Made by a program: the position numbers and the translations under genes | From: Mobula birostris | Lineage: Eukaryota | NCBI RefSeq assembly: GCF_030028105.1 | Contig: NC_092374.1 | Coordinates: forward strand, 32,497,016-32,561,015 | Reading direction: 5' to 3' | Length of the DNA: 64,000 nucleotides | Shown: positions 931-62,515 of the stretch, in pieces | Position numbering within the stretch: the first letter of the stretch is position 1 | Layout: each line of letters opens with the position of its first letter | The notes under the pieces: generated by a model | Databases searched by the model: none | What the model was told of the DNA's origin: nothing | What the model saw: only the letters and a program-made list of their open reading frames with translations

Positions 931-1994
931 TTTTACTTTCTCAGCTCAAGCTGGTAAAACCCGAGATATGGGCATAACCAAGCACACTCATTTCTCAATT
1001 GCTGGGAATCTTTTCCCTGGGTTTGTGTAGCAGAATAGTTTGTTCAGTCCTGATTGATGCTTGCATCAGTTGTGCCAAAACATAGTTTAGTTAAGAAGAC
1101 CACAATTTAGATTCCTTCAATATTTCAATTAAGTCATGGACTAAGTGCATAAAAAGGATTGAACACGACTTATAATATTGAAGAAGGAAAGAAGTCCAAT
1201 TTCTCTCTTACTTATAGGTGCCAAGACAAACAAATTGATAAAAAATTCTTGATGGCTCCAGCCAAGCCAGGAGACAGGATATCTGAAGAGTTAATTAACT
1301 TTAACAGCTGGGGTACGTCTTCAGATACAAACCATCTGTAAACTTTATTATAGTGCTAAATTGGGGCAATGCTAACTACAATGAGCATTAGGCAGGAACT
1401 GGGGAGAGTAGCTTGGGGGGGGGGGGGGCAAATCCATATCTGATGTGTGCGAGTCCTTTCAATGCCATCTGCTGAAAGTTCAGGACCAGCAATTGCCCAT
1501 GAGGGTAAAATACAAGGGTGACAAGATTCAGGAACGCTGAACGTAAAGGAATACTGTAATTTTAATAAAAATAAAGAAAACATTTGAAAGATTTAGGAAG
1601 ATAAAATTGGACAAGGTCCTTGATGAAATAAAAACTAGGAGGACTAAAAATGGTCATGAATGTCCTTGTCAAATAGGATTAATGATTAAGGAAATCCCCT
1701 AAGGCATTATATATGTACAGTAGATTGAATGCAGGAGGGTAAACAGGGAAAGGATGGGGTATAATCTTGATTATTCACATAGACTGGAGTTTCCCTGTCT
1801 GAAGCATATGACTCCCTTGGTGTGGGAAGGTGCTGTAGTGGTGGGTGGGTATGGTGGCAGGGGCAGGAGTTGGTGTGGGAATTATAGAGGTGGTCAAGTA
1901 GTAAAGGAGATGTTGGTGGTTTAATAATATTTAGGTAATTTAGTTAAAAATCCCACAGAAAATTTTATAGAACTACAAGTATACTCTCCCACAT

Positions 1995-3210
1995 CGGAGG
2001 CTGGTCAAGAAGGTTCAGTTGTTTGGCATTCAGGATGAGGTAGTAAATTGGATTAGACACAAACAAGAGAAAATCTGCAGGTGCTGGAAATCCAAGCAAC
2101 ACACACAAAATGCTGGAGGAACTCAACAGGCCAGACAGCATCTATGGAAAAGAGGACTGAATCTTTGCTGAAGGGTTTCGGCCCATTACATTGACGGTAC
2201 TCTTTTCCATAGATGCTGCCTGGCTTGCTGAGTTTCTCCAGCAGTTTGTGTGTGTAAATTGGATTAGACACCAGCTTTGTGGGAGAAGCCAGCAACTGGC
2301 AGTAGAGGGTTACCTCGCTAACTGGAGACCTGTAACTAGTGGTGTGCCTCATGGATCGGTGCTGAGTCCTTTGTTGTTTGACATCCATATCAGTGATATG
2401 GATGATAATGTGATTAACTGGATCAGCAAATTTACAGATGACACCTGGATTAAAGACAGTGACTTGCAGAGGGGCCTGCATTAGCTGGAAAACGGCTGAA
2501 AACTGGCAAATGGAAATTAATGGTAGGGCACTGAGGAATGTGGTAGAACGGAGGGATATGGGAATACAGGTCCATAATTTGTTGAAAGTGGTTTCATAGG
2601 TAGATAAGGTCACAAAGAAAGCTTTTGGCACATTAGTCTTCATAAATCAATTACTGAGTACAGGAAATGGGATGTTATGTTGAAGTTGTATTAGACATTG
2701 GTGAGGCCTAATTTGGAGTACTGTGTGCAGTTTTGATCCATACTGACAGAAAAGATGTGAATAAGGTTGAAAGACTATGGGGAAAATTTACAAGAATGTT
2801 GCTGGATCTGGAGGAGCTGAGATATGAGGAAAGATTGAATAGGTTAGGACTGTATTCTTTAGAATATAGAAGATTGAGAAGAGATTTGACAGAGGTACAC
2901 AAAATTATGAGGGGTACATGCAAGCACGATTTTTCCACTGAGGTTTGGTGAGACGATGTCCAGAGGTCATGGGTTAAGGGTGAAAGATGAGAAGCTTAAA
3001 GGGAACATGAGGGGAAACTTCTTGAAAGTATGGAATGAGCTGCCTGCATAGGTGGTGCATACAAGCTTGATTTCAACATTTGAGAGAAATTTGGATAAGT
3101 ACATGGATAGTAGGGGTAAGTTGATGGGAGTAGGCATTGAAATGGTTTCAAATGGACTCGATGGGCCAAAGGGCCCGTTTCTGTGCCGTACTATATGACT
3201 ATATGACTCT
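1995..3210 (+). mobile_element. CR1-type LINE 3' fragment, interrupted by a Penelope-like hairpin insertion
   Basis: WRPVTSGVPHGSVLSPLLF, SKFTDDT, YEERLNRLGLYSLEYRRLR; simple-repeat tail ACTATATG. Confidence 0.85.
2061..2253. mobile_element. Penelope-like (PLE) inverted pseudo-LTR hairpin mini-element with 18-bp TSD
   Basis: Flanked by the exact direct repeat GTAAATTGGATTAGACAC (2043-2060, 2254-2271). Internal inverted arms of about 55 bp; degenerate hammerhead core TTGCTGAAGGGTTTCGGCCC. Confidence 0.8.
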
Positions 3211-3294
3211 ACTGCTAGCTGTTCCTAATTACAGCTGCGACATTGTCAGGTGTTTAGAGGATTAGGGGAGGAGATCAAGAGCACCAAGATAATG

Positions 3295-3525
3295 ACAAAT
3301 AAAAAAAATTGCAAGTACTGAAAATCTAGAACAAAAATAGAAAATTCTGAAAGAGCACAGCAGATCAGGCAGCAGCTGTGGAAAGAGAAATAAGCTTCAG
3401 GTGGGAGATAGGAGACCTATAATCAAACTCTGATGGAGCTTATTGCACTGATTCTTTCCCCATTGTGCTTCTCTCTCCACAGAGGCTACTTGCACAGCTG
3501 AGTATTTCAGACACTTTCTGATTTT
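3295..3525. mobile_element. Older PLE inverted hairpin remnant
   Basis: Antisense PLE tail (agcagatcaggcagcagctgtgga) followed by a sense tail (tccacagaggctacttgcacagctgagtatttc). Confidence 0.55.
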
Positions 3526-3539
3526 ACCCAACTAATGCA

Positions 3540-6639: not shown

Positions 6640-6840
6640 TAGCTCAACAAGCCCAGGCTGCCCAAATACACCCATGTGACCAGTACGTCTTTGGAATGTG
6701 GGAGGAAACCAGAGTGCCCGCAAGAAAAGCACGCGGTCGTGAGGAGAACGTACAAACTCCTTACAGACAGCGGCAGGAATTGAACCCGGGTCACTGGCAC
6801 TGTAACACTCATATGATAACTGCTACAGTACCATGTCCGC
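6640..6840 (-). mobile_element. tRNA-derived V-SINE
   Basis: Minus strand has the B-box GGTTCAATTCC and a V-domain-like GTTTGTACGTTCTCC...GGTTTCCTCCCACATTCCAAAGACGT. Confidence 0.8.
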
Positions 6841-15292: not shown

Positions 15293-17944
15293 TGAGCAGT
15301 GTAACTTACAAGTACAAATAACAATTAGAAATGCAGTCTCATGTTAGTCTCATATACTGGTATGATTCGTTGACACTGTAAATATTACAAAGCTATAAAC
15401 ACATACTCTAAGTTAAATATAAATATGAAATATATTTGAGGTCTTTTTGGTACTGCTAATATTTACTTATAATTCTGGAATTTATAACATGAGTTATTAA
15501 ATTTGACTTACCAACTTTATCATAAGAACATAAGTACAATGTTCTTGAGTAGGATCAATCAGCCCCAGAAGATTCTTCCATTCAATAAAATCACAGTTAG
15601 TCCGATTTTGGCCAGAACAGGGATTTCCCATTCTCAACCCATAATCTTCTGTTTCCTTGTCACTGAAATATCTGCCAAAGCCTTATTTTTATTAGAGTCA
15701 ATGACTCTTCCTTCACAGCACTCTGGAATAGAGAACTGCAAAGGTTCACAACCCTGTGGGAGAAGAAATTCCTCCTCAGCTCCTTTGTTATGAAACTATG
15801 TTCCTAATTCCAGATGGCTTGTTGAGGGGAAATATTTTATCAGTAACTATCAGGTCATTCTCCTTCAGAGTCTTAGGTGTTTCAATAAGATCACATTATC
15901 ATGTCTTATGATTCTATAATTCAATGAGATCAGATCCAATTTGTCCATCCTCTCTTCATTTACCCCTTTAGCTCAAGAATCCTAGTGAATCTTTTTTGAA
16001 TGGCTGTGGTTGGCATCTGTCATAATCATCATCATAAGCCTGGGCAGAAGGTCTTCAAGATCCCCCTCTCGGCCTCACCAGTATAGTCCAAAGGAAAGCT
16101 TAAGAAGCAAAATGTTTGACACCAGCTTGGCTGCAGGAGCTGCCAGAAGGATGTTCCATGATATCCAGCAGCCTTACGGGATCCACTCTGGATTTGCTGT
16201 CTGGGTTCACTCCCATAGCCTTTGTCTCTCCTGAGGCTGCACACAAGGCAGTGGGGCTATTTGCCCATAGCTGGGGATCTGGTTCACAAGCACCAGGCCT
16301 GCCCACATGCCGGTGGGCCTGCGTGCTACGTGTGCAGGGGACAGACCTCCTCCCCGTCCTCTGTAGTTCAGACTGAGTCTGTCACCGTGTGTCCCCAGTG
16401 AGGAGGCACTACATGTGGCTTGCTGTTGGAGGGGCTATGTACTGGCAGGGAGAGATTTACACATTCAGCTCTCCTTTTCATGAGGCCACTAGCCAGTGGT
16501 GGAAGCTGAAAGTGAGAGTGACAAGCACTACCCACTTCACTACCACACCAGAGGCATCACGACAACCATTTTGACACCATTTTTTGAATTGCCTCTTCAA
16601 TTTAAGCATATCCTTCTTTAAATAAGAAGATTAAAACTCTGCTTTGTCCACACCTGCAATTAGAAAGAATCAGGCAACATTCAGGCATGTGCTAAGTGGT
16701 AACTTGTGTGAAATGACTACCTCCAACAAGAAAGAGTTTAACCACCTTCACTTGACATTTGTGAAGCTAATATTGCAGATGCTGAAAATCTGAAATAAGA
16801 ACAGAAAGTTTTGACAAGTCACACAACATCTGCTGAAGAAATTGAGTTGATGGTTCAGACACTGACCTTTCATTGGACCTTGTGTTTATATTAGTATTTA
16901 ACGAATTACTGTCATTTATTACCAATATTCACCAGAATGTCAACTGGACTTATGACATAAATGCTGTGGCAGAGCAATAGTTGGGTATCCTGCATCTCAT
17001 TCTGATGCCCATAGCCCTTCCACCATCTACAAGGCACAAGTCAAAAGTATGATGGAATCCTCTTTTTTGCCACGTAAATGAAGCTCCCACAACACTTAAG
17101 AACACCAGCAAGGGCAAGGAGAAGGTAGGCTGCTTGATTTTCACCCCCATCCACCACCCTAAACATTCAGTCCATTCACCAACATCAAGCCTTGCCTGGT
17201 GTGCCTATCTTCTCAGTAACACACTGCATTACTCATCTAGGCATCTCCCCAACAACTAACCTCTACCGGCAAGAAGAGCCAAGGCAGGTGGCACATGGGA
17301 GCACCATCACCAACAATGCCCCTATATCCAAGTTGCATACCTTCCCAACTTGGTTCCTTCATCGCTACTGGGTTGAAGCTCTGCATCTTCCTCCATAACA
17401 TCCTTGAGAAAATCCCTTCGCCAGAAGAAATGCGATTTCTCGTGTGGATGGGCAATAAATGCCAGCCCTGCCTCCGTAATCCAACTCCTAAAAAGTAAAT
17501 TATAAAAAGCAATAACAGTGCAGCTGACAGCAGGAAAATTTGGAGCCTTGATTTTAATTTCTAATTATATGACTCATTGACATTGTAAATAGCACAGAGA
17601 TATGAATAACTTATTCATAAATATTTAATGAATTTCGGGGCAGCAATTTTAACCCATCCTTTTTGACAAGGAGGAGATCAAGTTTGGGTTTAATGCACAT
17701 TTTACACTTGTCCAATTTTACTCTTCATTGAAATTAATGGAGAGCAATTGTGACAGGATGTAAAATGGATGCCTGGACTAAATTTTCTCTGATTCCCACT
17801 GAGTCTAGCTAAAATTGCAGCTTGTGAAAGCTTTTTAATGCCAGGGAAGATGTAACAGCAGAGCTTTAAGGGAAAATTTGAAGGCATGAGCAAAATGATT
17901 AAATGTTCTGTCATTTACAGCGAGGCAAAGGATGGAGGAGGTTC

Positions 17945-18310
17945 AAACACAAACAAGAGAAAATCTGCGGATGCTGGAAATCCAAGCAACGCACACAAAA
18001 TGCTGGAGGAACTCAGCAGGCCAGGCAGCACCTATGGAAAAGAGTCAACAGTCCATGTTTCGGGCTGAGACCCTTCAGCAGGGCTGGAGAAAAAAAAGAT
18101 TAGGAGTCAGAGTAAGAAGTGGGAGGAGGGGAGAAAGAAATACAAGGTAGTAGGTGATAGGTGAAACAGGGGGGTGAAGTAAAGAGCTGGGAAGTTGATT
18201 GATGAAAGAGATGCAGGGCTGGAGAAGGGGGAATCTGATAGGAGAGGACAGAAGGCCATGGAAGAAAGAAAAGGGGGAGGAGCACCAGAGGGAGGCGCTG
18301 GGCAGGTAAG
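17945..18310 (-). mobile_element. Penelope-like element 3' region/pLTR with a minimal hammerhead motif
   Basis: Pyrimidine-rich PLE 3' UTR. Minus strand CAGCC-CTGCTGA-AGGGTCTCAGCCC-GAAA-CATG-GACTG at 18049-18086. Confidence 0.75.
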
Positions 18311-18559
18311 AGATAGATAGGATGGAGGAGGTAGTATCTAGGAATGAACAATGGGAGATTAAAACAGGGAGAGACAGAAAAAAAGTAGGAAGTGAGAGGA
18401 ATGAAGGAAAATTAAGAAAGAGATGGAGACATGGAGAAAGAAGCCCAAGAAGGTGGAAAGGCAGCAAAGGTTTGCATTTGTATACCTCTTTTCTGATCTC
18501 AATGTCCGATTGTACATTAGAAACAGTTCAGTAATGTTTTAAAGACTGATTGGTGTTGT

Positions 18560-19120
18560 AGGGTGGTACAAGTAGCATTGTGGTTAGCGTGATCCTTTAG
18601 AGCACCAGTGACCTGGGTTCAATTCCCGCTGCTGTCGCATGGGGGTTGTACATTCTCCCCGTTACCACAAACAAGAGAAAATCTGCAGATGCTGGAAATC
18701 AAGAAACACACAACAAAAGACTGGAGCAACTCAGCTGGACAAGCAGCATCTATAGAAAAAAGTACACAGTCGACATTTTGGACTGAGACACTTCGGGCTG
18801 AGACTTGATGAAGGTTTCTCAGGTCAAAATGTTGACTGTTTGCTCTTTTCCATAGATGCTGCCTGGCCTGCTGAGTTGCCCCAGCATTGTGTGTGAATGA
18901 CTCCTTGCGACCCTGTGGGTTTCCTCCAGGTGCTCCTGTTTCCTCCCACATTCCGAAGTGGTATGGATGACGCTGTGAATGTGCTATCTTCATGCCAGAG
19001 GTGTGGCAACACTTGCAGACTGTCCCCAGCGTGACTATGTTGGTCGTTGATGCAAAACAATGCACTTCACTGTAGGTATGATTTGATGTTTCAATGTGCA
19101 TGTGCCAAATAAAACTAACG
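18560..19120 (+). mobile_element. tRNA-derived V-SINE interrupted by a PLE hairpin (about 18667-18897)
   Basis: A-box-like TAGCATTGTGG, B-box GGTTCAATTCC. The V-domain is split by an inverted PLE insert and resumes at GTGGGTTTCCTCCAGGTGCTCC. Confidence 0.8.
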
Positions 19121-20226: not shown

Positions 20227-21260
20227 ACACACACAAAATACTGAAGGAACTCAGCAGGTCAGGCAGCATCAATGGAAATGAATAAAAAGGTGACATTTCA
20301 AGTCAAGTTTATTGTCATTTAACTACTTACACGTATATAATGTATACAGGAACAAGGCAACGTTTCTTTAAACCAGGCTGCAAACATATCACACGATAAC
20401 ATGAAGGTAAGGATAAAATCTGCAGATAAATCACACATAAATAACAAACTAAAGGGCATTAATATTAAATAGAACAGATTAACCAGGGACACATTAACTG
20501 TGATGCAGCGGGGCCGACTATTAACTAATGGCAGGCAGGAAGAAACTGCTTCTCATCCTGACTGTTTCTGTTTTTATGCATCGTAGTCTCCTGCCTGATG
20601 GTAGAAAGTCAAAGAGGATGCTGGATGGATGGGTGGGATCCTTGATAATACCAAGAGCCCTGCGAACACAGCGCTCCTGATAAATGTCCCCGCTGGATGG
20701 TAGGGAGACCCCTATGATCCTCCCGGCTGTTCTCACAGTCCTTTGTGGGGCTTCAGGTCCCACACTGGATTGCTCCCATTCCAGATGGAGATGCAACTTG
20801 TCAGGATGTTCTCAATGCTGCTCCTGTAAAACACAGTTAAGAGGGGGGGTGGGAGCCTTGCTTGCCTCAAACTTTTTAGGAAGTGGACGCGTTGCTGTGC
20901 CTTCTTGTTCAGGGAGGTGTTATTATGGGACCAGGTGAGGTCACCTGTGACGTGAAGGCCAAGACCTTTCATCAGGACTGGAACGGAAGGGGGAAGATGC
21001 CAGAATAAAAAGGTGGAAGGAGGGGAAGGAGGACAAGCTAGAAGGTGATAGGTTAAGGCAGGTGGAGGGGAAAGGTCAAGGGCTGGAGAAGAAAGAATCT
21101 GATAGGAGGGGAGAATGGACCATAGGAGAAAGGGAAGGAAGAGGGCACCCAGGGAGAAGTGATAGGTAGGTGAGAAGAGATGCAAGTTCAGAGTGGGAAA
21201 TAGAGGAAGGGAGGATTTTTTTTTACAGGAAGGAGATATCAGATTGAAGGCTACCCAAAT
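20227..21260 (-). mobile_element. Penelope-like 3' region split by a Rex1-type LINE (20300-20955)
   Basis: PLE UTR at 20956-21260 with CAGTCCTGATGAAAGGTCTTGGCCT; continuation GAAATGTC at 20292-20299. The insert encodes KKAQQRVHFLKSLR...FYRSSIENILT...FLPSGRRLR and has a (CTTGA)n tail. Confidence 0.8.
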
Positions 21261-21496
21261 GGATTATAAGGACCAACATGTCAGAACGGGGGCACAAGAG
21301 GAGGCCAGACCCTTATGTGTCTATTTGGCTCAATTAACTGGCCCTACTTCTGACCTGCTACTAATTCAATTACAGTTTCACTAAGGGTAAAGATTTGAAA
21401 AGGAGAAGGGAGTACATGTGCTAAAACCACATATGAGTGAAACTCAATGGGCCTGACTAAAAGCATGACATTTAGCGTGAGCAAATTTCCTCTTAC

Positions 21497-24700: not shown

Positions 24701-25904
24701 TCATGACTATTTTCAAATGTACGCTCCGAGGTTGGCCTGTGGATGGCTACTCTTTTAAATCATCTGTGCTACGCTCACTATATTCCACAAATATTTACAG
24801 TTACGTCCAAAAACATATGCTTGATTCAGAAGCAGATGGGAGGGTGAAGACCTGGTTCGAGCTCTTGGCAGACAGGTTGTAAATCTGTAACTGGTAATGG
24901 TTTTGTGTGATGGACTGCTGGTTTCAGGATAAAATCGCTGACCAGCCGAACTCCCTGAGCAAAGCTGCAGTATCACATGCTCCCCGCAGATTAGTCCATA
25001 ATGTCAATGGGAAAGAGAGTTGAGCTGATGTCCAATACCTTCTGACTGGCTACAGCTCATCTTGTTCTACAACCCATGGCAAAATCTAAATCCTCATCAA
25101 ATTCACCCAGGTAACCCAAAGGAGATCAATTGATAGCATCATACACAAAGTGCTGGAGGATCTGAGCAGGTCGGGCAGCATTCGTGGAAAAGGGTAGACA
25201 GTCGATGTTTCTGGCCAAGGCCCTTCTTTAGGCCTGACATTTCATTTCATTACTTTACTAAGTTCATTCTTCAAACAGCCTTGAAGAGGAAGTGCAAAAA
25301 TCTAACATTGACACATCCTTTTCAAATCTTCTGTGGTATTTATAAACCCTATTTTGCTTATTCTAATGTTGTATTAGAGTGTAGAATTGTTAGTTTTCTT
25401 GTATTTTCCTTGTGGTTTGACTTTCCTGTGCTTGCTTGTATTTTTACATAATCATCTACAGTATATACACATTCAGTGAATTTTCCAGCAATTGTGGTAC
25501 AGTTGCTTCTGTATTTTTCTAGAAGCTTCTTAGTTTTCAGCAGCAGGTGTCACACCACTTGAATCTAGCTACTTTGTCACTTGAATTTTGTTTCCTCTGA
25601 GTATGAGACGACCACGATTACTTTTTCCTTTGGTTCTTGTGCTTTATTCACTCAGCTCCTCTTTCTTGTTCATTTTCTGCTCTTTTAGCACTTAACAAAA
25701 TGGCTGTAAGCAACAAGTTTTATGCCTCATTCTTGACTTCCAAAGCACCTTTGGATCACAAAAGTATCAGGGTCCAAACTCTTTGGAAGTAAGAGAGGTG
25801 ATCTCTTTGAAATGTTTAAAATTCTCACAGGGCCTTGACAAGGTAGATTTAGGAATAATGTCTGAGCTGAACTGTATGTTTAGAAACAAAGGGTAACAAA
25901 TTCT

Positions 25905-26310
25905 GTAGCAAGTAGTAGTAGTAATGTAATCACCTGCATTGAGTTTGATGTCCTCCCAAGGGCTTACTGCCTTAATGGAGAATGACTGTGCGTGACTTTG
26001 TTTAACGTAGGGAAACTGATGCAGACACCACATCATCCTTGACAGATTGGGGTCAGGTCCCAGTGGAATTGCACCCAAGATGACAGGGGATCCTTCACGG
26101 CTGCAGCCCTCACCGCCGTTATGATGCATCATCATCCTCCACCCGCTCCACCACTGAGTCCCTGGTTGGATCGCTCTTGTCTGGAGACTCCCCCTTGACC
26201 TCACGGCCACCCTACCAGGAGCGAAGCTCCGGGCAGCCATTGCTCTTAGGTTCTCGGCAACTCGCGTGCCTCTCCACCGTGACAAAGTAACCAGCCTCGG
26301 AGAGGTCTGT
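25905..26310 (-). mobile_element. RTE-clade-derived non-autonomous element
   Basis: The minus-strand 5' part (CTTTGTCACGGTGGAGAGG...CCTAAGAGCAATGG...CCTGGTAGGGT) resembles recalled RTE/Rex3/BovB 5' UTRs. (TAC)n tail; no ORF. Confidence 0.55.
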
Positions 26311-26736
26311 AGCAAGTAGGACAGAGATGGGAGACCATCCCTTTTCCTCCAAAGATGCTGCCTGGCCCAATGAATTCCACCAACTCCAGCTTTCCACCGT
26401 CGGTGGTCTTCTACATCTCTAGCTTGCGGAAATGGGAGGAAATTTTCTTCACCCACCAAGTTCAGAGTCTTTGGAATTCCCTACTCATGAGGACTGCGGA
26501 AGCGTGGATGTTGAGTATATCTAAGAGATAAGTTTATAGTTTTGAATATTAAGGGAAGCAGGGGATATGGAGTTAGTGCAAGAACATGCTGCTGAGTTAA
26601 AGATCAACCAGCATACTATTGAACAGCAGTGCCAAATGATATGCTCTTGTTTCCCTTTCCTAGGTTATGTCTGTAAATGTACATTTTTATCTGCCATGAC
26701 AACATAATGCCTTGGTTAAGGTTTCTACTGCTATGC

Positions 26737-27484: not shown

Positions 27485-28714
27485 ATTTAATTTCCCATTT
27501 GTCAGTATGGTTGACCTAAGTCCATTCCAAATGATTATGGCTTCGTTAAAATGACGGAATCATAACAGTGTTATGTCACACGAGAAGCCCATTTGGGCTG
27601 TCAGGTCAATGTCAGCCCCATTCCGTCACTCTTTTGTTATAGACTTAGAAATCATTTTCTTCCAGGTGAATTAGATTGAATAAAATTGAATTTGCTTTCA
27701 GAGATTAGAAAGGCACCATGTATTTCTCAAACACTCATTCCCTTTGACATTTACCTTAACTGACACTTCCTCACAAATACTCTCTCCTCTTCAACGTTCT
27801 TAAACACTTGTCGTACATTCATGTCTTCAGCATAACATTCTCTTCCTTGTGATTATGTCTCTTCCTGGTCTCTCCTACTCTTCGTAGACAACACTCAATA
27901 GACATACGTTGTTTTTCTATTAACTCACCATTCCCCAACTCTAACACTTTGTATTTACCCTTCCGTTGGGTTACTGTTTGCAACCATTCTTTCATCCAAC
28001 CAGGTCCCACTTAGCAGACCTGTCTCACTCAAACCCGCACATCCCCTCTTTTAATTAGAATCCACCAGATTACCTCCTCCCCCCCAACCTACCGCACCAT
28101 GCGTTGCCTCCCCCCACCCCATCTCACTCTTCCACTAAATCGTTCACAATCATTTTGTCCGATTAAAGATGTATAAAACATAAGTTGCCTTCTACATAAG
28201 TGCAAGTAGCCATTATTGATATTTCATACCACAGCCTTTGGCCTTGCTGCAGCATTTTCCAAGCTGCACAAATCCTACCAGGGATTCTGGGATGTAGAAC
28301 AAAGGGGATAGAAAGCCACGTTGTTGAAATATATCTCCTGGCAGACTCCTGGCCTGAATAACAACAAGTTACCACAGAGCTGACAAAATGAGTTCATCAT
28401 TAATCATACTGGCACATTTATTTCCAACAACACTTGTCTATCAAATTCAAAGTAATAAATGCTCAGGTGTCACGGCTCCTCGACAACCCACTTTTATCTC
28501 CTCCAGCTTCCCTGCTGAACTTTTCTTTTGGCCAGATATTGTAAAAGCTCCTGAGAAATTCTTCCTTCAAAGATTTAATTGAATTTGTACTTAAAGCAGA
28601 AGTACAAGGTTGTCCTCAGGGCCGATAGGCATGTGCTTATTTTTCTAGCCCAACTGATCAAAATCCAACACAATCCAGCATTCTCGTTGCTTGTGCGTGG
28701 AACGAAAATATTCA

Positions 28715-29175
28715 GTCCATGATGAGGCCACCCTCAGGGTGGAGGAGCAATGCCTCATATTCCACCTGGGTAGCCTCCAACCTAATGGCATGAATATCGA
28801 TTTTTCCTTCTGGTAAAAAAAATTCCCTCCCCCTCTCCTCTTCTATTCCTCATTCTGGCCTCTTACCTCTTCCCATCTACCCATCACCTCCCCCTTCCCT
28901 TTTTCTTATGGTCCACTCTTCTGTCCTATCAGATCTCTTCCCCTCCAGCCCTTGACCTTTCCCACCCACCAGACTTCACCTGTCACCTTCCAGCTCTCCT
29001 CCTTCCCCTCCCCCCAACCTTTTGATTCTGCTGTCTTCCCCACACCTTTCCAGTCCTGAAGGAGGGTCTTGCCCCAAACCATCTACCATTTATTCATTTC
29101 CAGAGATGCTGCCTGACCTGCTGAGTTCCTCCAGTATTTTGCTCGTGTTCCTCTGGATTTCCAGCATCTCTCGTG
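28715..29175 (+). mobile_element. Penelope-like element 3' end (GIY-YIG C-terminus plus pLTR)
   Basis: HDEATLRVEEQCLIFHLGSLQPNGMNIDFS is typical of the PLE endonuclease end. Degenerate hammerhead CAGTCCTGAAGGAGGGTCTTGCCCC at about 29051. Confidence 0.8.
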
Positions 29176-29339: not shown

Positions 29340-32260
29340 GACATATGATGCAGAATATGAGGCTGAAATGTTATTCTGTGTGTGTGCTTTGTCTCAGTTT
29401 GCACACCTTCAGTTCTACCCAGTGGGTTACAGGATCACACTGACTTCAGAGTTGAGTACGCAAATCTATGCAATTAACTGCCTCTGAGGGAATGCTGTAA
29501 CTGCTGAGGTTGTTTTTCAGCTGAGGTTTTAAATCGAGGCTCTAAATGTGCTCTAATATAAATATAAAATGAATTTTGCTTTGTTTTTTTGAAAATTCCA
29601 TTTCCTTTTGACCGACAAAATGGCACGGTTACCAAAACTGCTTCCTCGGACTCCAGTGACGTGTATTTTGCCATTGTCTCTGTAGAGTTTGCACATTCAC
29701 CCTGTGAATGCAGGGATTTTCTCCAGTTGCAGCACCTTCCTCCCACATTCGGTGAGTTAATTGGCCAGTCTGCAGATGAATGGTAGAATCTGGGAGGGTC
29801 AGATTATTATCAAAGTATGTATGGACTACCTTGAGGTCCATTTCCTTGCAGGCATTCACAGGAACATAAAGAAATACAAGAGAATTTATGAAAAACCATT
29901 CGTGAACAAAGATCATCAAACAACCAATGTGCCAAAGAGGACAAGTAGTTCAAATAACTGAGAACATGGAGTGGAAAAGTCCTTGGAAGTGAATCTGTGG
30001 GTTTGGAATCAGTGGTGGGATGAGAGCTGACATACTCAATGAGTCAAATGGCCTTCACCTAAGTCAAAAAGACATGCACAGATATATACAGTAGCTAGAA
30101 ATTATGTACAGCCTAGCACGAATGTTAATTTTACCAAAAAGATCATCTAAATTTCTATTTTTTGTCATCTTCAGTATTATGACTGGGAATGCCAAGAAAT
30201 GGAGTACTGATTTGGGGTTGTGGCCAAAACCACTCTCTGGTGATAGCAATCCTGTCAATTTTCTCACTGGCAGAATAGATCACAGATCAGGTTCAATATC
30301 AATTAACTCATGATATTTGACTGATACTTTGATAATAGGCCAGCTCAAGAAGAAGACTTGCACCTCTTTTGACAATCTACATCATGGGCTAATTTTCTAG
30401 TAGTCCGGGGCATGAGAAATTCACTACTTAAAGGTTCCCGGCCAATTTTATGTCCCTCCTCCCTTTTTGTCCCATATATACAATTATTTGGCGAGTCCGA
30501 AACACCATTGAACAGCAAGCAAACTCAAGCCAAGTGAAGCTGCCCCGAGCTGCGAGGTTATTACAATAAAAGTGAACCCGGTAAATCACGAGTAACACTG
30601 AACGGTGTGGTGACCCTATGACAGCTCCTAGAGCTGCTACCGTACAGCTTCCTCAGCCTGCGCTCAATCTGACCTCTGGTGTTGGCTGTGTGGAGCTCGC
30701 ACATTCTCCCTCTTACCACCTGGGATTCCTCAGGTTTTCACCCTCATCCCATCATGGGTTGGTAGGTCAGTTACTCACACTACGTTGCCCCCAGTCTGCA
30801 CATATCTGGTAGAACCTGATGGTTGGGAGACCAGGAGTTGACGGAAATGTGGAGAGAATAAAAATGGGATCTGGTAGAATCAAAACAAAATGTACCTGAT
30901 GGTCAGGCAGATTTGTGGGAGGTAAAGGCCCTTTACCTGTGTTTATCTCTCTTTTACTCTGTGGTGCTATTGAATTGGGGATTGTCGGTCATGGTGCAGT
31001 GTTCCCCAGCCCAGAGACTTCCTTATAGGGTAGTTACTGGCGTATTACGCAACAAAGGGAGGGAAAGGCAGCAGAAAGCAAAAGGTCGTAGCTGATACTG
31101 GAATCGAGATCAAATTCCAGAACTCTGAGAGAACTCAACGGGTCAGGCAACAACTTGAATGAAAAACAGAAAACTCTGGGGAAAAAAAGCAGATCAGGCA
31201 GCAGCTGAAACAAAAAAAAATGCCCGAAGAATGCAGTCTGTCGGGTAGTACCTAGAACAACCAGGACACTGGAAGAACTCGGTTGGTTGGGCAGTGTCTT
31301 TGGAGTTATTTGTTCCTCTTCAACAAAAAAAAACAGAGAATGCTGGAAGTTTCTTTGCCCCCATAGATGCTGCCTGGCCCACTGAGTTCTTCCAGAGTTC
31401 TGGCTGGTTTTTGCAAAGGGAAAGGCTGGCGATGAAGAGAGGAAGCCGAGGCCTATGTAGTCTGTCAGTACCCATAGGAGTCACGCTGTCCCCTATTCTA
31501 GATGCTACCTGACCCACTGTGTTCCCTCAGCATTCTGTTTTCAGCACTGCTGTCTCTTTTGTTTTCTCAAAGACAAAGGAAATTTATTATCTAAGTATGC
31601 ATATGTTACCTTGAGATTCATTCTCTTTCAGGAAAATAAAAACACAATAGAATATATGAAAAACTATACATAAACAAAGACTGACAAGCAATCAATGTGC
31701 AAAAAAAAAACTGTGCAAATAAAAAAATCATAATGATACTGAGAACACAAGTTGACAGTGAGTTTGTAAGCTGTGGAATCATAAACACAAGATATTCTAC
31801 AGATGCTGGAAGCAGTCATGATGGAATAAGCCAAAAGATCTAACTCTGCCCCTTTGTCTTGTGGTCTAAATACATCAGGGATATGTCGAGTAGGTGTGAA
31901 AGAGATCATAAAATTCAGGACATTGAGTTCCCATTTCGATCATGGTGGTCCTGATTAGTGAGATGCCTCCTAGAGAGTGTTCGGGTAAATGAGTGGCTTA
32001 AAACTGCAATTTATTACCCCTCTTCCACCTCCTACCCTCCCTACCCACCCCCCCCCCGGGGCTTTCCATTGTCGCGGGTGCAAAGAAACACATTTTCCAA
32101 AAGTTAGTATGAATCAATGTATTAACTAATTGTATGTAACTCCAGTGTTCAACTGGAATCATTAATTACTTTACTCTCCAAAGTTACTGCCTGGTTTTCA
32201 ACACTTCTTGTTTGCATTCCATGTTTCCAGAATCCCCATTATTTTGCCTTGACTCACTAT

Positions 32261-33001: not shown

Positions 33002-33695
33002 ACAATAGGGGAAGAATTCTGCATCAGTCTAGGTGAAGATCTCAGCCCGAAGGTAGACAGCCCATCTCTCTCCACTGCTGTTCCCTGAGCTCCCCCAGCA
33101 GTTCACTCTCTGCTCCACCTTACAGCTTCAGCAATCTCTTTATTACAATCCAAAATAATCTCACTAGTCCAGGTGACAAGAGGATTCATTGGTTGGAGTC
33201 AGAAGCAAAATAAGGACTTTTGTTTTGAACTGCATATGCTGTAAATCTGAAATAAAAAGAGAAAATGCTGGAACCAGCAGCATCTGTGGAAAGCAAAACA
33301 GATTTAATGTTTAGTTTAAAGAATACAGATACTGGCTGATCTGCTGAGTGTTTCCAACATTTTTTTTTAACAATCAAGTAAATGGATTTTATAAATTTCT
33401 TTCCATCAGATAGGTCAAAATTTAAGAGGTAAGAGAGAGTTGCTGCTACAGGCAAGTTTTTTTTTAATTGCATCTGTACCTCACTGTACTCGTGTGCACA
33501 TGACAATAAACTCGACTTGATTTGGGAAGATAAGAACGCCAAGCTTCGGAATATGCGGCTGCTGCAGAACTCTGGGATGTAGAGGGCGGAATGCGGGAGG
33601 TAGTGAGAGGACGACCGGGAGGGGGCGAAATATCGGGAGGTCGGGAGAAGATAGCCGGGAGGAAGCAAAATACTGTACAGGCTACTAAGAGTTCA

Positions 33696-34050
33696 GGAGA
33701 CGGCAGAGGGAATACCGGGAGGTCGGGAGACGACAGGGGGCGGGATACCGGGAGGTCAGGAGACGGCAGAGGGCGGAATACCGGGAGGTCGGGAGACGAC
33801 AGGGGGCGGAATACCGGGAGGTCGGGAGACGGCAGGGGGCGGGATACCGGGAGGTCGGGAGACGGCAGAGGGCGGAATACCGGGAGGTCGGGAGACGACA
33901 GGGGGCGGAATACCGGGAGGTCGGGAGACGACAGGGGGCGGAATACCGGGAGGTCGGGAGACGGCAGAGGGCGGAATACTTGGAGGTCAAGAGACGGCAG
34001 AGGGCGGAATACTTGGAGGTCAGGAGACGGCAGAGGGCGGAATACGGGAG
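33696..34050 (+). repeat. 33-bp G-rich minisatellite, about 10.5 copies
   Basis: Unit GGGAGGTCGGGAGACG(G/A)CAG(A/G)GGGCGG(A/G)ATACC repeated in tandem. It appears as an 11-aa periodicity in the overlapping ORFs. Confidence 0.95.
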
Positions 34051-34206
34051 CTGGAGAGAGGACGGCCGGGAGGGGGCGAAATAGCAGGAGGACGGCGGAG
34101 ACGATCGTCAAAGCTGCTGGCTGGGTCGGTTGCTAGGTGGCGCCGAAATCGGCCTTCGTGGTGGTTGTGAAAAGCTCCCGCTCACATTCTGGAGTTTCCC
34201 GGGGCC

Positions 34207-49707: not shown

Positions 49708-52038
49708 TACAACCAGAGGAGAGAGGACTCTGGATTTGATGTACGGTAACATTAAGGATACATACAGCTCCTCTCCCCTCCCCCCACTGGGAAGGTCAGA
49801 TCACAACCTGGTGCATCTAAAACCCTGCTAAGTGCCTCTGGTGAAGAGTAAACCTGCAACCTCAAGGACATTGAGAAAATGGTTGGAGGAGGCTTATGAG
49901 GTGCTCCAGGGTTGTTTTGAGGTGACAGACTGGCAGGCACTCTGTGAGCCACATGGAGAGGGTATTGATGGGCTCACAGAGTGCATCACTGATTACATCA
50001 ACTTCTGTGTGGACTACAATGTTCCGACAAGAACTGTCCTTTGTTATTCAAATAACAAGCCATGGGTAACAAAGGATATTAAGGACATCCTGAACACTAA
50101 AAAGAGGGTGTTTAGAGATGGAAATAGGGAGGAGCTGAGGACAATACAGAGGGACCTGAAAGCCAGGATCAGGGAGGCTAAAGACAGGTACAGGAGGAAG
50201 CTTGAGTGGAAACTCCAGCAGAACAACATGAGAGAGGTCCGGAGGGGGATGAGGACCATCACTGGGTTCCGGCAAACTAGTAACAGAGGAGCTGAAGGCA
50301 GTGTGGACAGGGCCAATGAACTTAACCTGTTCTTTAACAGATTTGACATTGTGGCCGCTGCCCATCGCCCATATGAGTCATCTGTTGTCGGCCCCCAACC
50401 AACACATATTCCACTCTCCCCTCCTATCCCTCCTCATAGGTCCCCACCCTGCTCTCATGACTATACCCCTTCCCCGCACGAAACCACCACGGTGGGCTTC
50501 ACAGTTCTACAGGTGAGTAGACAGCTGAAACGTCTTAACCCAAGCAGGCCCGGATGGTGTCAGTACCAGGGTGCTCAAAGCCTCTGCCCCTCAGCTATGT
50601 GGAGTACTTCGCCATGTAATCAACCTGAGCCTTAGGCTCCGGAGGGTTCCTGTACTGTGGAAGACGTCCTGCCTCGTCCCTGTGCCGAAGACGCCGCGCC
50701 CCAGCGGCCTCAATGACTACAGACCGGTGGCATTGACCTCCCACATCATGAAGACCCTGGAGAGACTTGTTCTGGAGCTGCTCCGGCCTATGGTCAGGCC
50801 ACACTTAGATCCCCTCTAGTTCGCCTACCAGCCCCGACTAGGAGTTGAGGATGCCATCGTCTACCTGCTGAACCGTGTCTACGCCCACCTGGACAAGCCA
50901 GCAAGCACTGTGAGGGTCATGTTTTTTGACTTCTCCAGTGCGTTCAACACCATCCGCCCTGCTCTGCTGGGGGAGAAGCTGACAGCGATGCAGGTGGATG
51001 CTTTCCTGGTGTCATGGATTTTTGATTACCTGACTGGCAGACCACAGTACGTGTGCTTGCAACACTGTGTGTCCGACAGAGTGATCAGCAGCACTGGGGC
51101 TCCACGGGGGACTGTCTTGTCTCCCTTTCTCTTCACCATTTACAGCTCGGACTTCAACTACTGCACAGAGTCCTGTCATCTTCAGAAGTTTTCTGATGAC
51201 TCTGCCATAGTTGGATGCATCAGCAAGGGAGATGATGCTGAGTACAGGGCTATGGTAGGAAACTTTGTCACATGGTGTGAGCAGAATTATCTGCAGCTTA
51301 ATGTGAAAAAGGCTAAGGAGCTGATGGTAGACCTGAGGAGAGCTAAGGCACCGGTGACCCCTGTTTCCATCCAGGGGGTCAGTGTGGACATGGTGGAGGA
51401 TTACAAATACCTGGGGATATGAATTGACAATAAACTGGACTGGTCAAGGAACACTGAGGCTGTCTACAAGAAGGTTCAGAGCCATCTCTATTTCCTGAGC
51501 AGACTGAGGTCCTTTAACATCTGTCGGACGATGCTGAGTATGTTCTACGAGTCTGTGGTGGCCAGTGCTATCATGTTTGCTGTTGCGTGCTGGGGCAGCA
51601 GGCTGAGGGTAGCAGACACCAACAGAATCAACAAACTCATTCATAAGGCCAGTGATGTTGTGGGGATGGAACTGGACTTTCTGACGGTGGTGTCTGAAAA
51701 GAGGATGCTGTCCAAGTTGCATGCCATCTTGGACAATGTCTCCCATCCACTACATAATGTACTGATTGGGCACAGGAGTACATTCAGCCAGAGACTCATT
51801 CCACCGAGATGCGACACAGAGCGTCATAGGAAGTCATTCCTGCCTGTGGCCATCAAACTTTATAACTCCTCCCTTGAAGGGTCAGACAATCTGAGCCAAT
51901 AGGCTGGTCCTGGACTTATTTCCTGGCATAATTTACATATTACTATTTAACTATTTATGATTTTATTACTATTTATTATTTATGGAGCAACTGTAACGAA
52001 AACCAATTTCCCCCGGGATCAATAAAGTATGACTATGA
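49708..52038 (+). mobile_element. Young Rex1/Babar LINE, 5'-truncated, about 2.3 kb
   Basis: NKPWVTK, DYRPVALTSHIMKTLER, FFDFSSAFNTI, GAP-GTVLSPFLF, KFSDDSA. Only a few stops or deletions. AATAAA plus (TATGAC)n tail; inserted in an antisense CR1 tail with short duplication TGATTGT. Confidence 0.93.
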
Positions 52039-58445: not shown

Positions 58446-59820
58446 TTATCATTTGTGTGTGAAAGCATTTCTCCTCTAGTGTATATCTTTAGCCTGTTTC
58501 ATCATTACATTGAGTGGAAATGATGAGTCACTATTTACCTGTTAAAACTCTTCTAAGTTCAGAGTGAAATTATTAAATCTCAGCACTACAGAATGATAAC
58601 AGCATGGAAGAAGGCCATTCGGCCCACTGAGTCCATATCAGTTTCATTTAATCTCCCCTTGATCCTCCAGATTGTTTCCTTTCAGATGCTTATTGCACCC
58701 CTGAATCTGTCAATTATGGGAAGATCATAGGGAGATTCTCCATATTTCCTTTTACATTCCTCAACATCTGAGGATGAAACACATCTGGACCAGATTTATC
58801 CAATTTAAACACAGCTAGTAGATCTACTTCATCTATCAATAATCCAAAATGTTAATAATGCCTTTGTTTTAAGGCTCCAGTAGTATCCTTTTAGGTAAAG
58901 ACAACTATAAAGTATTTATTAAGTACCTCAAACATGCTCTTTGCCCCCAAGAGTAATTTATTTTTGTTTTGTCTCTTCAATTAAAGCCCTTTTCTTACAT
59001 GCATTTTCCAGTGCTCATGTATACATAATATTCTTGGATTGTCTTTGACAGACTCTTCTCATACTCTTTCTTTACCCCTCCTATTTGCTTTTTCACTTCC
59101 CTTCTGTACTTTCTGTAATCAACCTGATCTCACTTGTGTTAACAACGGGGCATCTCTTTGTTCTAGTCATTCAGGGAGCTCAGGCTTTAATTTCCCTACA
59201 GATCTATTCTTATCCTTTCGAAATTGGATCTCCTATAATGGATTATTTTTATCCTAGTATAGCTGAAAACTTTTTCCATTACTGTTCTGAAGTGTATATT
59301 TTTATGCTCACTTCCCCCCCCCCATTAGTCTTAAAGTTGAAACAGTAAATTAGACAGGTGTACTATTTCTCACATATTTTAATTAAGTACAATATTTGCC
59401 TTTGCAGTGAATGATAAATTGAGCTTCACTCCTGTGCAACTCCACCAAGGAAGTTTATCTCCAGAGTATAATTTGTGTATAGTTATAGCTTATTAAAATG
59501 ATTCTGGTAAACAGTTATTATTTTCCTTTGCAGATTATACATCAACATCCAAATTCAAATATAGCCATAAAATTCTTGCCAAATATTCCTCCTTCAAACA
59601 CATCACTTACACCATTTGCTCATTACAGCTTCAGTATATTCCATGTATTAATCACAATCTGTACTAAGAAAAATGTGCTGTGTATTTTTGTAAAAAAGAA
59701 GCAGAAGCTTTTGATTCCTTTGCTTAAATGGTATTTGATAGTAAAGTTGGTGTAGACTTTTGTCTTGCTCTAATAAAATTTTGTGTCAAATTGTTAAATT
59801 CTGTTTGAAGGGTTTTAATC

Positions 59821-60039
59821 ACAAACAAGAGAAAATCTGCAGTTGCTAGAAATTGAAGCAACACACACAAAATGCTGGAGGAGCTCAGCAGGCCAGGCAG
59901 CATCTATGGAAAAAAAGTACAGTCAACATTTTGGACCCTCCAGTCCTACCGAAGGATCTGGGCCCAAAACATCAACTGTACTCTTTTCCATAGATACTGC
60001 CTGGCCTGCTGAGTTCCTCCAGCATTTTGTGTGTTTTGC
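59821..60039. mobile_element. PLE inverted pseudo-LTR hairpin mini-element with 16-bp TSD
   Basis: Exact direct repeat TTGAAGGGTTTTAATC at 59805-59820 and 60040-60055. Inverted arms of about 80 bp; degenerate hammerhead CAGTCCTACCGAAGGATCTGGGCCCAAAACATCAACTG at the turn. Confidence 0.85.
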
Positions 60040-60108
60040 TTGAAGGGTTTTAATCTTGTTTTTCTACTATTTTCTGTTGACAGAAACAAAGAAATTTAAA
60101 AAGAGTAA

Positions 60109-60414
<306 letters not shown>

Positions 60415-61629: not shown

Positions 61630-61899
<270 letters not shown>

Positions 61900-61994
61900 T
61901 AGCAACTTGCAATGCTATTTCTGTTATTTGCAGGAAATAGCAAAGGGACAAATAACCATTAACTACTGATTAATTGTGAAAGAATATGTCAGTT

Positions 61995-62515
61995 GGAGCA
62001 CCTCCGCTCCATCAGCCCCAGTGAGACTTTCCCGGTGGCCAAACATCGTAGTTCCAATTTCAATTCCCTTTCTGACATGCCAGTCCATGGACCCCTCCAG
62101 TGCCAAGTTGAGGCTATCCTCAGAGTGGAGGTGCAACACCTTTATGTTCTATCTGGGTAGCCTCCAACCTGATGGCATGAATATCAATTTCTCCTTCCAG
62201 TAAAAAAATTCTCCCCTCCCCCATTCCTCACCCTGACCTTTCACCTTCACCTACCTATCACTTCCCCCTTGGTCCCCTTCCCCTTCTCTTTCTGTTATGG
62301 TCCACTCTCCTCACTATCAGACTCCTTTGTCTCCAGCCCTTGACCTTTCCCACCCATCTGGCTTCACCTATCACCTTCCTTCCCCTCTCCCACCTTTTTG
62401 TTCTGGTGTCTTCACCCTTCCTTCTGAGTTCTGAAGGAAGATCTTGGCCTGAAACATCAACTATTTATTCATTTCCGTAGATGCTGCCTGATCTGCTGAG
62501 TTCCTCCAGCATTTC
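61995..62515 (+). mobile_element. Penelope-like element 3' end (GIY-YIG C-terminus plus pLTR)
   Basis: PVAKH...FYLGSLQPDGMNINFS; hammerhead-like AGTT-CTGAAGG-AAGATCTTGGCCT-GAAA-CATC-AACT at about 62427-62462. Confidence 0.8.

Follow-up and report, generated by a model that had tools for sequence, protein, structure and literature searches.

Penelope-like retroelements typically occur as inverted truncated copies carrying a 30-40-bp tail on one side only (PMC8557442, Fig. 2 legend; PMC3846280), and the origin of such inverted, one-tailed insertions has been called unresolved (PMC8557442). In Pen2a_Av of the rotifer Adineta vaga, the inverted terminal repeat is 37 bp shorter than the full one, with an optional 31-bp tail on one side (PMC3846280). 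The Poseidon enzyme of the anole Anolis carolinensis cuts and extends both strands in vitro, is predicted to form a dimer, and uses two internal start sites that delimit the tail; uncut RNA serves as a template, and 5′-shortened templates give shorter products (PMC11167929). Pairs of hammerhead ribozymes lie 100-700 bp apart on opposite strands in Schistosoma (PMC4209133), and non-LTR retrozymes have been reported in the single cartilaginous fish sampled (bioRxiv 10.64898/2026.07.22.740005).

Analysis of a 64,000-nt stretch of Mobula birostris DNA (the window) revealed what is most likely a much shorter form of this arrangement. On balance, a 193-bp insert at 2061-2253 (hairpin A) probably consists of a pair of unequal copies, head to head, of the terminal 100-140 bases of a likely Penelope-like retroelement, enclosed in one target duplication and made in a single event in which both cut strands primed short cDNA. 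An exact 18-bp direct repeat flanks the insert (2043-2060 and 2254-2271), and its inverted arms (2089-2157/2197-2265) extend over 69 nt with 87% complementarity. The RNA of the insert folds into a single long hairpin (z = -13.1; 0 of 200 shuffles equally stable), and a miRNA gene at this site was considered and rejected. Element positions are numbered on a linear copy in the window (copy D, position 1 = 17948). The features of the locus are as follows:

1983..2445, plus strand: host LINE reverse-transcriptase fragment, presumably of CR1 type, split by the insert; the LINE extends past 2445
2043..2060, plus strand: left copy of the 18-bp target-site duplication; its final 3 nt double as the first 3 nt of the element
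2058..2154, minus strand: tailed arm of hairpin A, positions 1-97 of the element end, element sense on the minus strand
2058..2098, minus strand: one-sided tail of ~41 nt, outside the inverted repeat
2155..2165, no strand: centre junction, a clean fit to neither arm
2166..2255, plus strand: tail-less arm, positions 133 to ~42-44, element sense on the plus strand, with a decayed hammerhead remnant at ~2160-2200
2254..2271, plus strand: right copy of the 18-bp target-site duplication

The reading frame of the host LINE is the same on either side of hairpin A, giving V-N-W-I-R-H each time; its right flank has a match to Pfam RVT_1 (E 1.4e-5, under the curated cut-off). Because the uninterrupted host frame requires only one copy of the repeat, the 18-bp repeat is a true target duplication. 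A second CR1 at ~41464 is missing the sequence around the insertion point, which makes it unusable as an empty site, and a copy at 51009, which we take to be L2-like, carries the homologous motif once. At the right end of the insert, 9 of 12 target bases are identical to positions 32-43 of the element (background 74/127,976). The few nucleotides of the centre may be the remnant of positions 134-140 after a central deletion.

The same design recurs at two further sites, and related linear copies give the layout of the parent element:

18655..18912, no strand: hairpin B, within a SINE, insert 18667-18900, decayed 12-bp duplication; tailed arm 1-129 plus a 10-nt re-copied piece, tail-less arm ~135-45
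59805..60055, no strand: hairpin C, insert 59821-60039 (219 bp), exact 16-bp duplication 59805-59820/60040-60055; tailed arm 1 to ~119 (59820-59938), tail-less arm 142-36 (59938-60042)
17929..18332, minus strand: linear copy D, insert 17943-18318, 14-bp duplication (17929/18319), with tail, hammerhead remnant and ~230 nt of pyrimidine-rich UTR
28706..29170, plus strand: older linear relative with an ORF end bearing GIY-YIG-like C-terminal residues, UTR, hammerhead remnant and terminal arm; it fixes the sense strand
61970..62514, plus strand: older linear relative whose endonuclease-like ORF end is longer and frameshifted

Four matches to a 22-nt start motif were found in the window at no more than 3 mismatches, against none in 100 shuffles; three mark the hairpins and the fourth (17949) is copy D. 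Five exact repeats of at least 14 nt, spaced 50-600 bp, occur in the window outside one minisatellite, and three of these flank copies A, C and D; pairs of random 30-nt zones shared a 14-mer in 84 of 200,000 draws. At hairpin B, an exact flanking repeat of at least 6 nt was sought and is absent. The decayed 12-mers there (18655-18666/18901-18912) are identical at 8 of 12 positions, and a paralogous SINE (6689-6805) crosses the insertion point with a single copy of the repeat. The duplications thus measure 18, 16, 14 and ~12 bp, with a single copy at the empty-site equivalents of A and B. The hairpins range from 193 to 234 bp and account for three of the four copies with the same tail in 64 kb; a solo tail-less arm spanning position 38 to ~139 lies near 25135.

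A preliminary description of this DNA, made from the letters alone, had named the three hairpins. Its exact 18-bp duplication and the splitting of a CR1 agree with the single-copy host frame, which resumes beyond the insert, and with the sub-cut-off RVT_1 match on the right side. The recurrence at 59821-60039 with a 16-bp duplication was recovered exactly, and the start motif it gave for the three hairpins extends to copy D, which it had not cited. Its view of the insert as made only of two inverted copies of the terminal sequence holds for the inversion, but the arms are unequal and a few centre nucleotides fit neither; at ~18667-18897 the hairpin is present (18667-18900) with a duplication that has decayed.

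Some neighbouring features deserve separate mention. Copy D contains an exact 14-bp repeat (18078-18091/18213-18226), located between the 5′ border of the ribozyme and the UTR, which could be a template-switch site. Exon-like frames of a zinc-transporter gene, presumably SLC30A5-like, occur at ~60263-60340 and 61636-61790, and its introns hold hairpin C and the 62-kb relative. Another exact 14-bp direct repeat (25902-26319) surrounds ~390 bp of GC-rich sequence and adjoins a Penelope-arm remnant at 26348-26382. A GC-rich minisatellite spans ~33615-34080 with a 33-bp period and is flanked by an 18-bp repeat (33615/34066).

Read on the strand opposite to that of the numbering on copy D, the element consists of a pyrimidine-rich UTR, a hammerhead remnant (~100-140), an arm of ~60 nt, a CA/TG-rich run (36-50) and the terminal tail. 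The hairpin family is 72-84% similar in DNA over UTR and arm to the older ORF-bearing relatives, whose ORF-end frames contain EH, two further H, E and a terminal N in order. The GIY-YIG endonuclease of Penelope-like elements carries conserved R, H, E and N residues after its core (PMC8557442). These ORF ends match a piece of a stingray RECQL5 gene model at 56-78% identity, the piece starting with YIGE; two of the three protein matches were to repetitive proteins and were dropped. The RECQL5 piece appears as an exonised endonuclease-like ORF end in the gene model (protein P0005, residues ~487-563), and the match is a weak sign of a ray or a relative as host. Pfam, homologue, Atlas and PDB searches with the endonuclease-like ORF ends of the relatives returned no confirming match, the predicted fold, with a pLDDT of 41.6, was unusable, and no ORF piece with a Penelope-type reverse transcriptase was identified in the window. 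Since these libraries do not confirm the endonuclease, the identity of the element is drawn from motif and anatomy rather than from a database match, and on those grounds we consider a Penelope-like element highly probable.

The hammerhead of the hairpin family has a minimal type I layout and survives only as a remnant. Scanning both strands of the window revealed no intact core, and Rfam gave no match at the gathering score, hammerhead included, with only sub-threshold matches to generic or miRNA-type hairpins. The first box is intact at ~20985 (minus strand) and the GAAA box is present in copy D; the majority contig loose end at 18045 keeps GAAAC-GUC (second box and cut triplet) and stem I. 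An active ribozyme at the hairpin A locus was rejected, the core being decayed. As in the dispersed minimal hammerheads of truncated Penelope elements, stem I is short, an extra base precedes stem II and stem III is palindromic (PMC4209133). Unlike the hammerheads of that report, the whole motif lies in one arm only, every copy in the window is decayed, and core position 6 is C in copies A, C and D, with A in copy B. A linear relative at 20962-21290 (minus strand), whose first ribozyme box is intact, loses similarity near the cut site and has neither arm nor tail, an ending that may reflect chance or a later deletion.

Weak inverted arms are also found at 3.36-3.50, 31.3-31.4 and 33.26-33.37 kb (E 4e-4, 0.11 and 0.011, respectively). 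The segments 3290-3530, 31330-31401 and 33250-33368 are probable older hairpins of related subfamilies, with other tails and no clear duplication, which suggests that older relatives also made hairpins. A target-duplication search around six older copies yielded one weak candidate.

In all three fully readable hairpins (n = 3), the tail occurs only on the left arm and measures 36-44 nt, as in one-tailed inverted truncated copies, while positions 133-142, the 5′ border of the ribozyme, are reached only by the right arm. Neither arm therefore contains the other, and the structure is not obtainable by simple self-copying of one cDNA. The three centre junctions are all different (0 of 3 pairs share one), and the idea that the turn always falls at the ribozyme cut site was rejected because the tailed arms end at 97, ~119 and 129 and the cut site lies at ~106-107. 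Over a 53-nt core, arms differ at 4-5 positions within one copy (5 of 53 in hairpin A) and at 2-6 positions between copies, as measured with the left arm of B, which is out of register, omitted from the distance table and read separately. No arm-specific diagnostic changes common across copies were found among the six arms aligned in register. A 2-nt indel and the first ribozyme box distinguish hairpin B from hairpin C, and at the indel both arms of each copy agree; this concordance points to separate births, and from the aligned arms the two appear to derive from different parent variants. Target ends overlap the element by 3, 1, 1, 0, 2, 0 and 3 nt, or 10 nt over seven junctions (P 0.002-0.007 under a geometric null), a count for which borders were chosen after inspection of the data and copy D was the sole reference.

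Comparison with the published systems places the locus close to Pen2a_Av. Like the head-to-head insertions of that element, the hairpins combine a shortened inverted repeat, a one-sided tail, one duplication around the unit and a variable overlap at the inverted junction (PMC3846280). In contrast to Pen2a_Av, the arms enclose nothing, which leaves a unit of only ~200 bp with no ORF, and the duplications are 12-18 bp rather than the 8-10 bp described for the rotifer (PMC3846280). The hairpins also resemble Poseidon in having two termini that delimit the tail, a hammerhead ~70-110 nt upstream and cDNA that passes an uncut ribozyme site, and the activity of the anole enzyme would give two arms (PMC11167929). 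For Poseidon, start sites without homology to the cut DNA are reported, in contrast to the 0-3 nt shared at the hairpins; joined two-armed mini-hairpin products are not described for Poseidon in vitro in the available part of that report (PMC11167929). Animal non-LTR retrozymes are similarly small, non-coding, derived from Penelope terminal repeats and related to hammerheads, but they are tandem direct repeats in which every unit carries a ribozyme, in contrast to the single inverted units without an intact core seen here (bioRxiv 10.64898/2026.07.22.740005). Direct tandem units with a complete hammerhead in each were not found in the window.

Assembled contigs from four organisms (runs X1, X5, X9 and X20, out of 23 runs listed; 121,832-173,913 contigs per run) were mapped on copy D. 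Their numbers reveal a very abundant repeat, in terms of contigs rather than copy number. Contigs cross from flank to element at both borders of copy D in X1, X5 and X9, and in X20 at the right-hand border; no empty allele of copy D was seen in the four organisms. All four runs show a pile-up of heterogeneous AT-rich loose ends before 17992 (1,401-2,596 contigs per run, agreement 0.36-0.38), and 1,220 contigs end similarly before 17948, listed for X5 only; these pile-ups match the two element termini. The 17992 pile-up and the ends of the centre joint described below adjoin changes private to copy D (e.g. 17991), which blurs their positions by several nucleotides. In X1, contig depth falls ~6-11-fold from the arm (18031) to the UTR (18202-18213), where depth again does not give copy number. 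Pattern scans of metagenome, viral and prokaryotic genome contigs gave no matches.

Three strand-changing joints occur among the 15 of 1,668 joints listed. The centre joint 18045/18082 (positions 98/135) is carried by 10, 10, 3 and 4 contigs in the four runs, at a depth of 9-13 each against a single-copy depth of 6-13. The best-supported opposite-strand joint among those listed is tail to tail, 17948/17992, with 12, 14, 11 and 21 contigs (58 in total), followed by 17950/17992 with 10, 8, 2 and 5 (25 in total); both are found in all four organisms at about single-copy depth. Such tail-to-tail joints could arise from hairpin units in tandem, from repeated insertion at a single site, or from a circle that was inserted again. 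Of the 15 joints listed, out of 1,668 across the four organisms, none is a multi-copy junction of a hairpin. Multi-copy junctions can register, since one X9 contig shows a linear deletion derivative at a depth of 239, but contigs are short and fragmented in repeats and some joints went uncounted, so that this absence is moderate evidence only. X9 joints at 18043-18245 and 18195-18246 and an X5 joint from 18028 to 17988 reach depths of 239, 171 and 288, respectively, against ~8 for single copy, and are possible lineage-specific deletion or tandem derivatives of the element.

In LINE-1 twin priming, both cut target strands prime cDNA, which leaves an inversion inside one target duplication. The second primer there anneals upstream on RNA that has not yet been copied, so the two parts do not overlap; in the hairpins, both arms instead copy the same stretch from two fixed start zones. 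In the sequence of events that we favour, the endonuclease of the element would nick the two strands 12-18 nt apart, a geometry suggested by the duplications. One 3′ end would then prime at the outer start site to give the tailed arm, and the other at the CA-rich site 36-45 nt further in to give the tail-less arm, as the two termini imply, with priming presumably aided by 0-3 nt of target homology. Both cDNAs would stop in the hammerhead or at its 5′ border, within the observed stop zone of 97-142, either by run-off at the RNA 5′ end or by stalling. Repair would join the converging cDNA ends, an origin from which junctions are expected to differ from copy to copy, as the three do.

We favour such two-strand priming because it accommodates the true duplications, the unequal arms in 3 of 3 hairpins, the three junctions and the two parent variants; because the same family made linear copy D and the solo tail-less arm at ~25135; and because contig loose ends fall at two termini, the ends show homology, and the anole enzyme has the matching in vitro activity. 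The right-longer asymmetry of the centre (3 of 3) could also come from a perfect fold-back palindrome that later lost part of its centre. This belongs to the main rival reading, which we judge unlikely, though worth keeping in view, and in which a cDNA (or antisense template) folds near the ribozyme, copies back and stops at the CA-rich site; later centre deletions would vary the junctions and the copies would still be independent insertions. Fold-back has been proposed for head-to-head Penelope structures with junction palindromes (PMC3846280 Discussion), and the available part of PMC5753468 makes no mention of palindromes. In the centre of hairpin A, both arms can be read as having run to 139-140, the left one then losing sequence between AG dinucleotides; stem I of the ribozyme offers a ready 5-bp inverted repeat, and the two arms agree on the 2-nt variant in B and in C. 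Set against this, a deletion on the same side is needed in 3 of 3 copies, and fold-back gives no reason for the shorter arm to end where solo linear copies begin, nor for the match of that end to the second start site of PMC11167929. Whether through two-strand priming or fold-back, the hairpins very probably arose independently, and each is probably a now inactive insertion product with no hairpin master.

The preliminary description had offered two origins. The first, a stereotyped end product of Penelope-like retrotransposition, fits both the data and the literature. The second, a self-propagating, ribozyme-bearing, MITE-sized retro-family, fares poorly: no intact hammerhead core was found on either strand of the window, breakpoints are unique to each copy in all three window hairpins, the finding that the description itself had set against such a family, and the six arms aligned in register have no diagnostic changes in common across copies. 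In its fuller form, a hairpin master would give rise to transcripts, possibly tandem or circular ones cut by the hammerhead, that Penelope proteins re-insert in trans in the manner of a retrozyme or SINE. The narrow range of sizes, the density of hairpins among same-tail copies, the great abundance of the repeat in contigs and the tail-to-tail joints, which tandem hairpin units would produce, all speak for it, and non-autonomous Penelope derivatives do exist (bioRxiv 10.64898/2026.07.22.740005; PMC8557442). We nevertheless hold it to be improbable in view of three junctions in three copies, two parent variants, the lack of common arm-specific changes, the lack of a multi-copy hairpin junction among the joints listed, tail-to-tail contigs at near single-copy depth, and a window with no tandem unit, although a minority subfamily that propagates itself is conceivable. 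A MITE moved by a cut-and-paste DNA transposase is suggested by size and a strong inverted repeat, but that repeat is non-terminal, with 36-44 nt outside it on one side only, duplication length varies from ~12 to 18 bp, and the same sequence also terminates longer linear elements that have a UTR and the end of an ORF; the one-sided tail and variable duplications led us to reject this very improbable origin. The probability of a chance repeat or assembly artefact is practically negligible. Site A does lie inside a LINE, a place prone to assembly errors, and contigs were mapped at copy D only, but its arms differ from each other, two other sites show the design, each with a duplication of its own, and a single repeat copy is all that the host frame and the SINE paralogue require.

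Two-strand priming, the preferred reading, does not predict the tail-to-tail joint 17948/17992. As a long shot, some hairpin units may have been joined tail to tail into tandem or circular forms, bringing two same-strand minimal hammerheads next to each other for cutting as a dimer, in which case the scar would represent the birth stage of a hairpin-shaped retrozyme spread by Penelope proteins in rays.

The architecture itself is already in print and the locus is inactive debris; the stub is most likely what the published head-to-head Penelope insertion, with its one-sided tail, becomes at its 5′-truncated, ORF-less limit. Literature searches found no paper on mini-hairpin stubs in cartilaginous fish and no match for twin priming applied to Penelope; most subscription journals lay outside both searches, as did, for the stubs, Repbase and Dfam, which may catalogue such repeats. 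The stubs may be mis-annotated as MITEs or miRNA hairpins, given their sub-threshold miRNA-type matches in Rfam. They are short enough to show both target junctions and the centre junction together. With so abundant a repeat in this lineage, the stubs of a single good assembly could serve to tell two-strand priming from fold-back. Their residual value is as a natural data set on how Penelope inversions form, together with the tail-to-tail joints that still call for an explanation.
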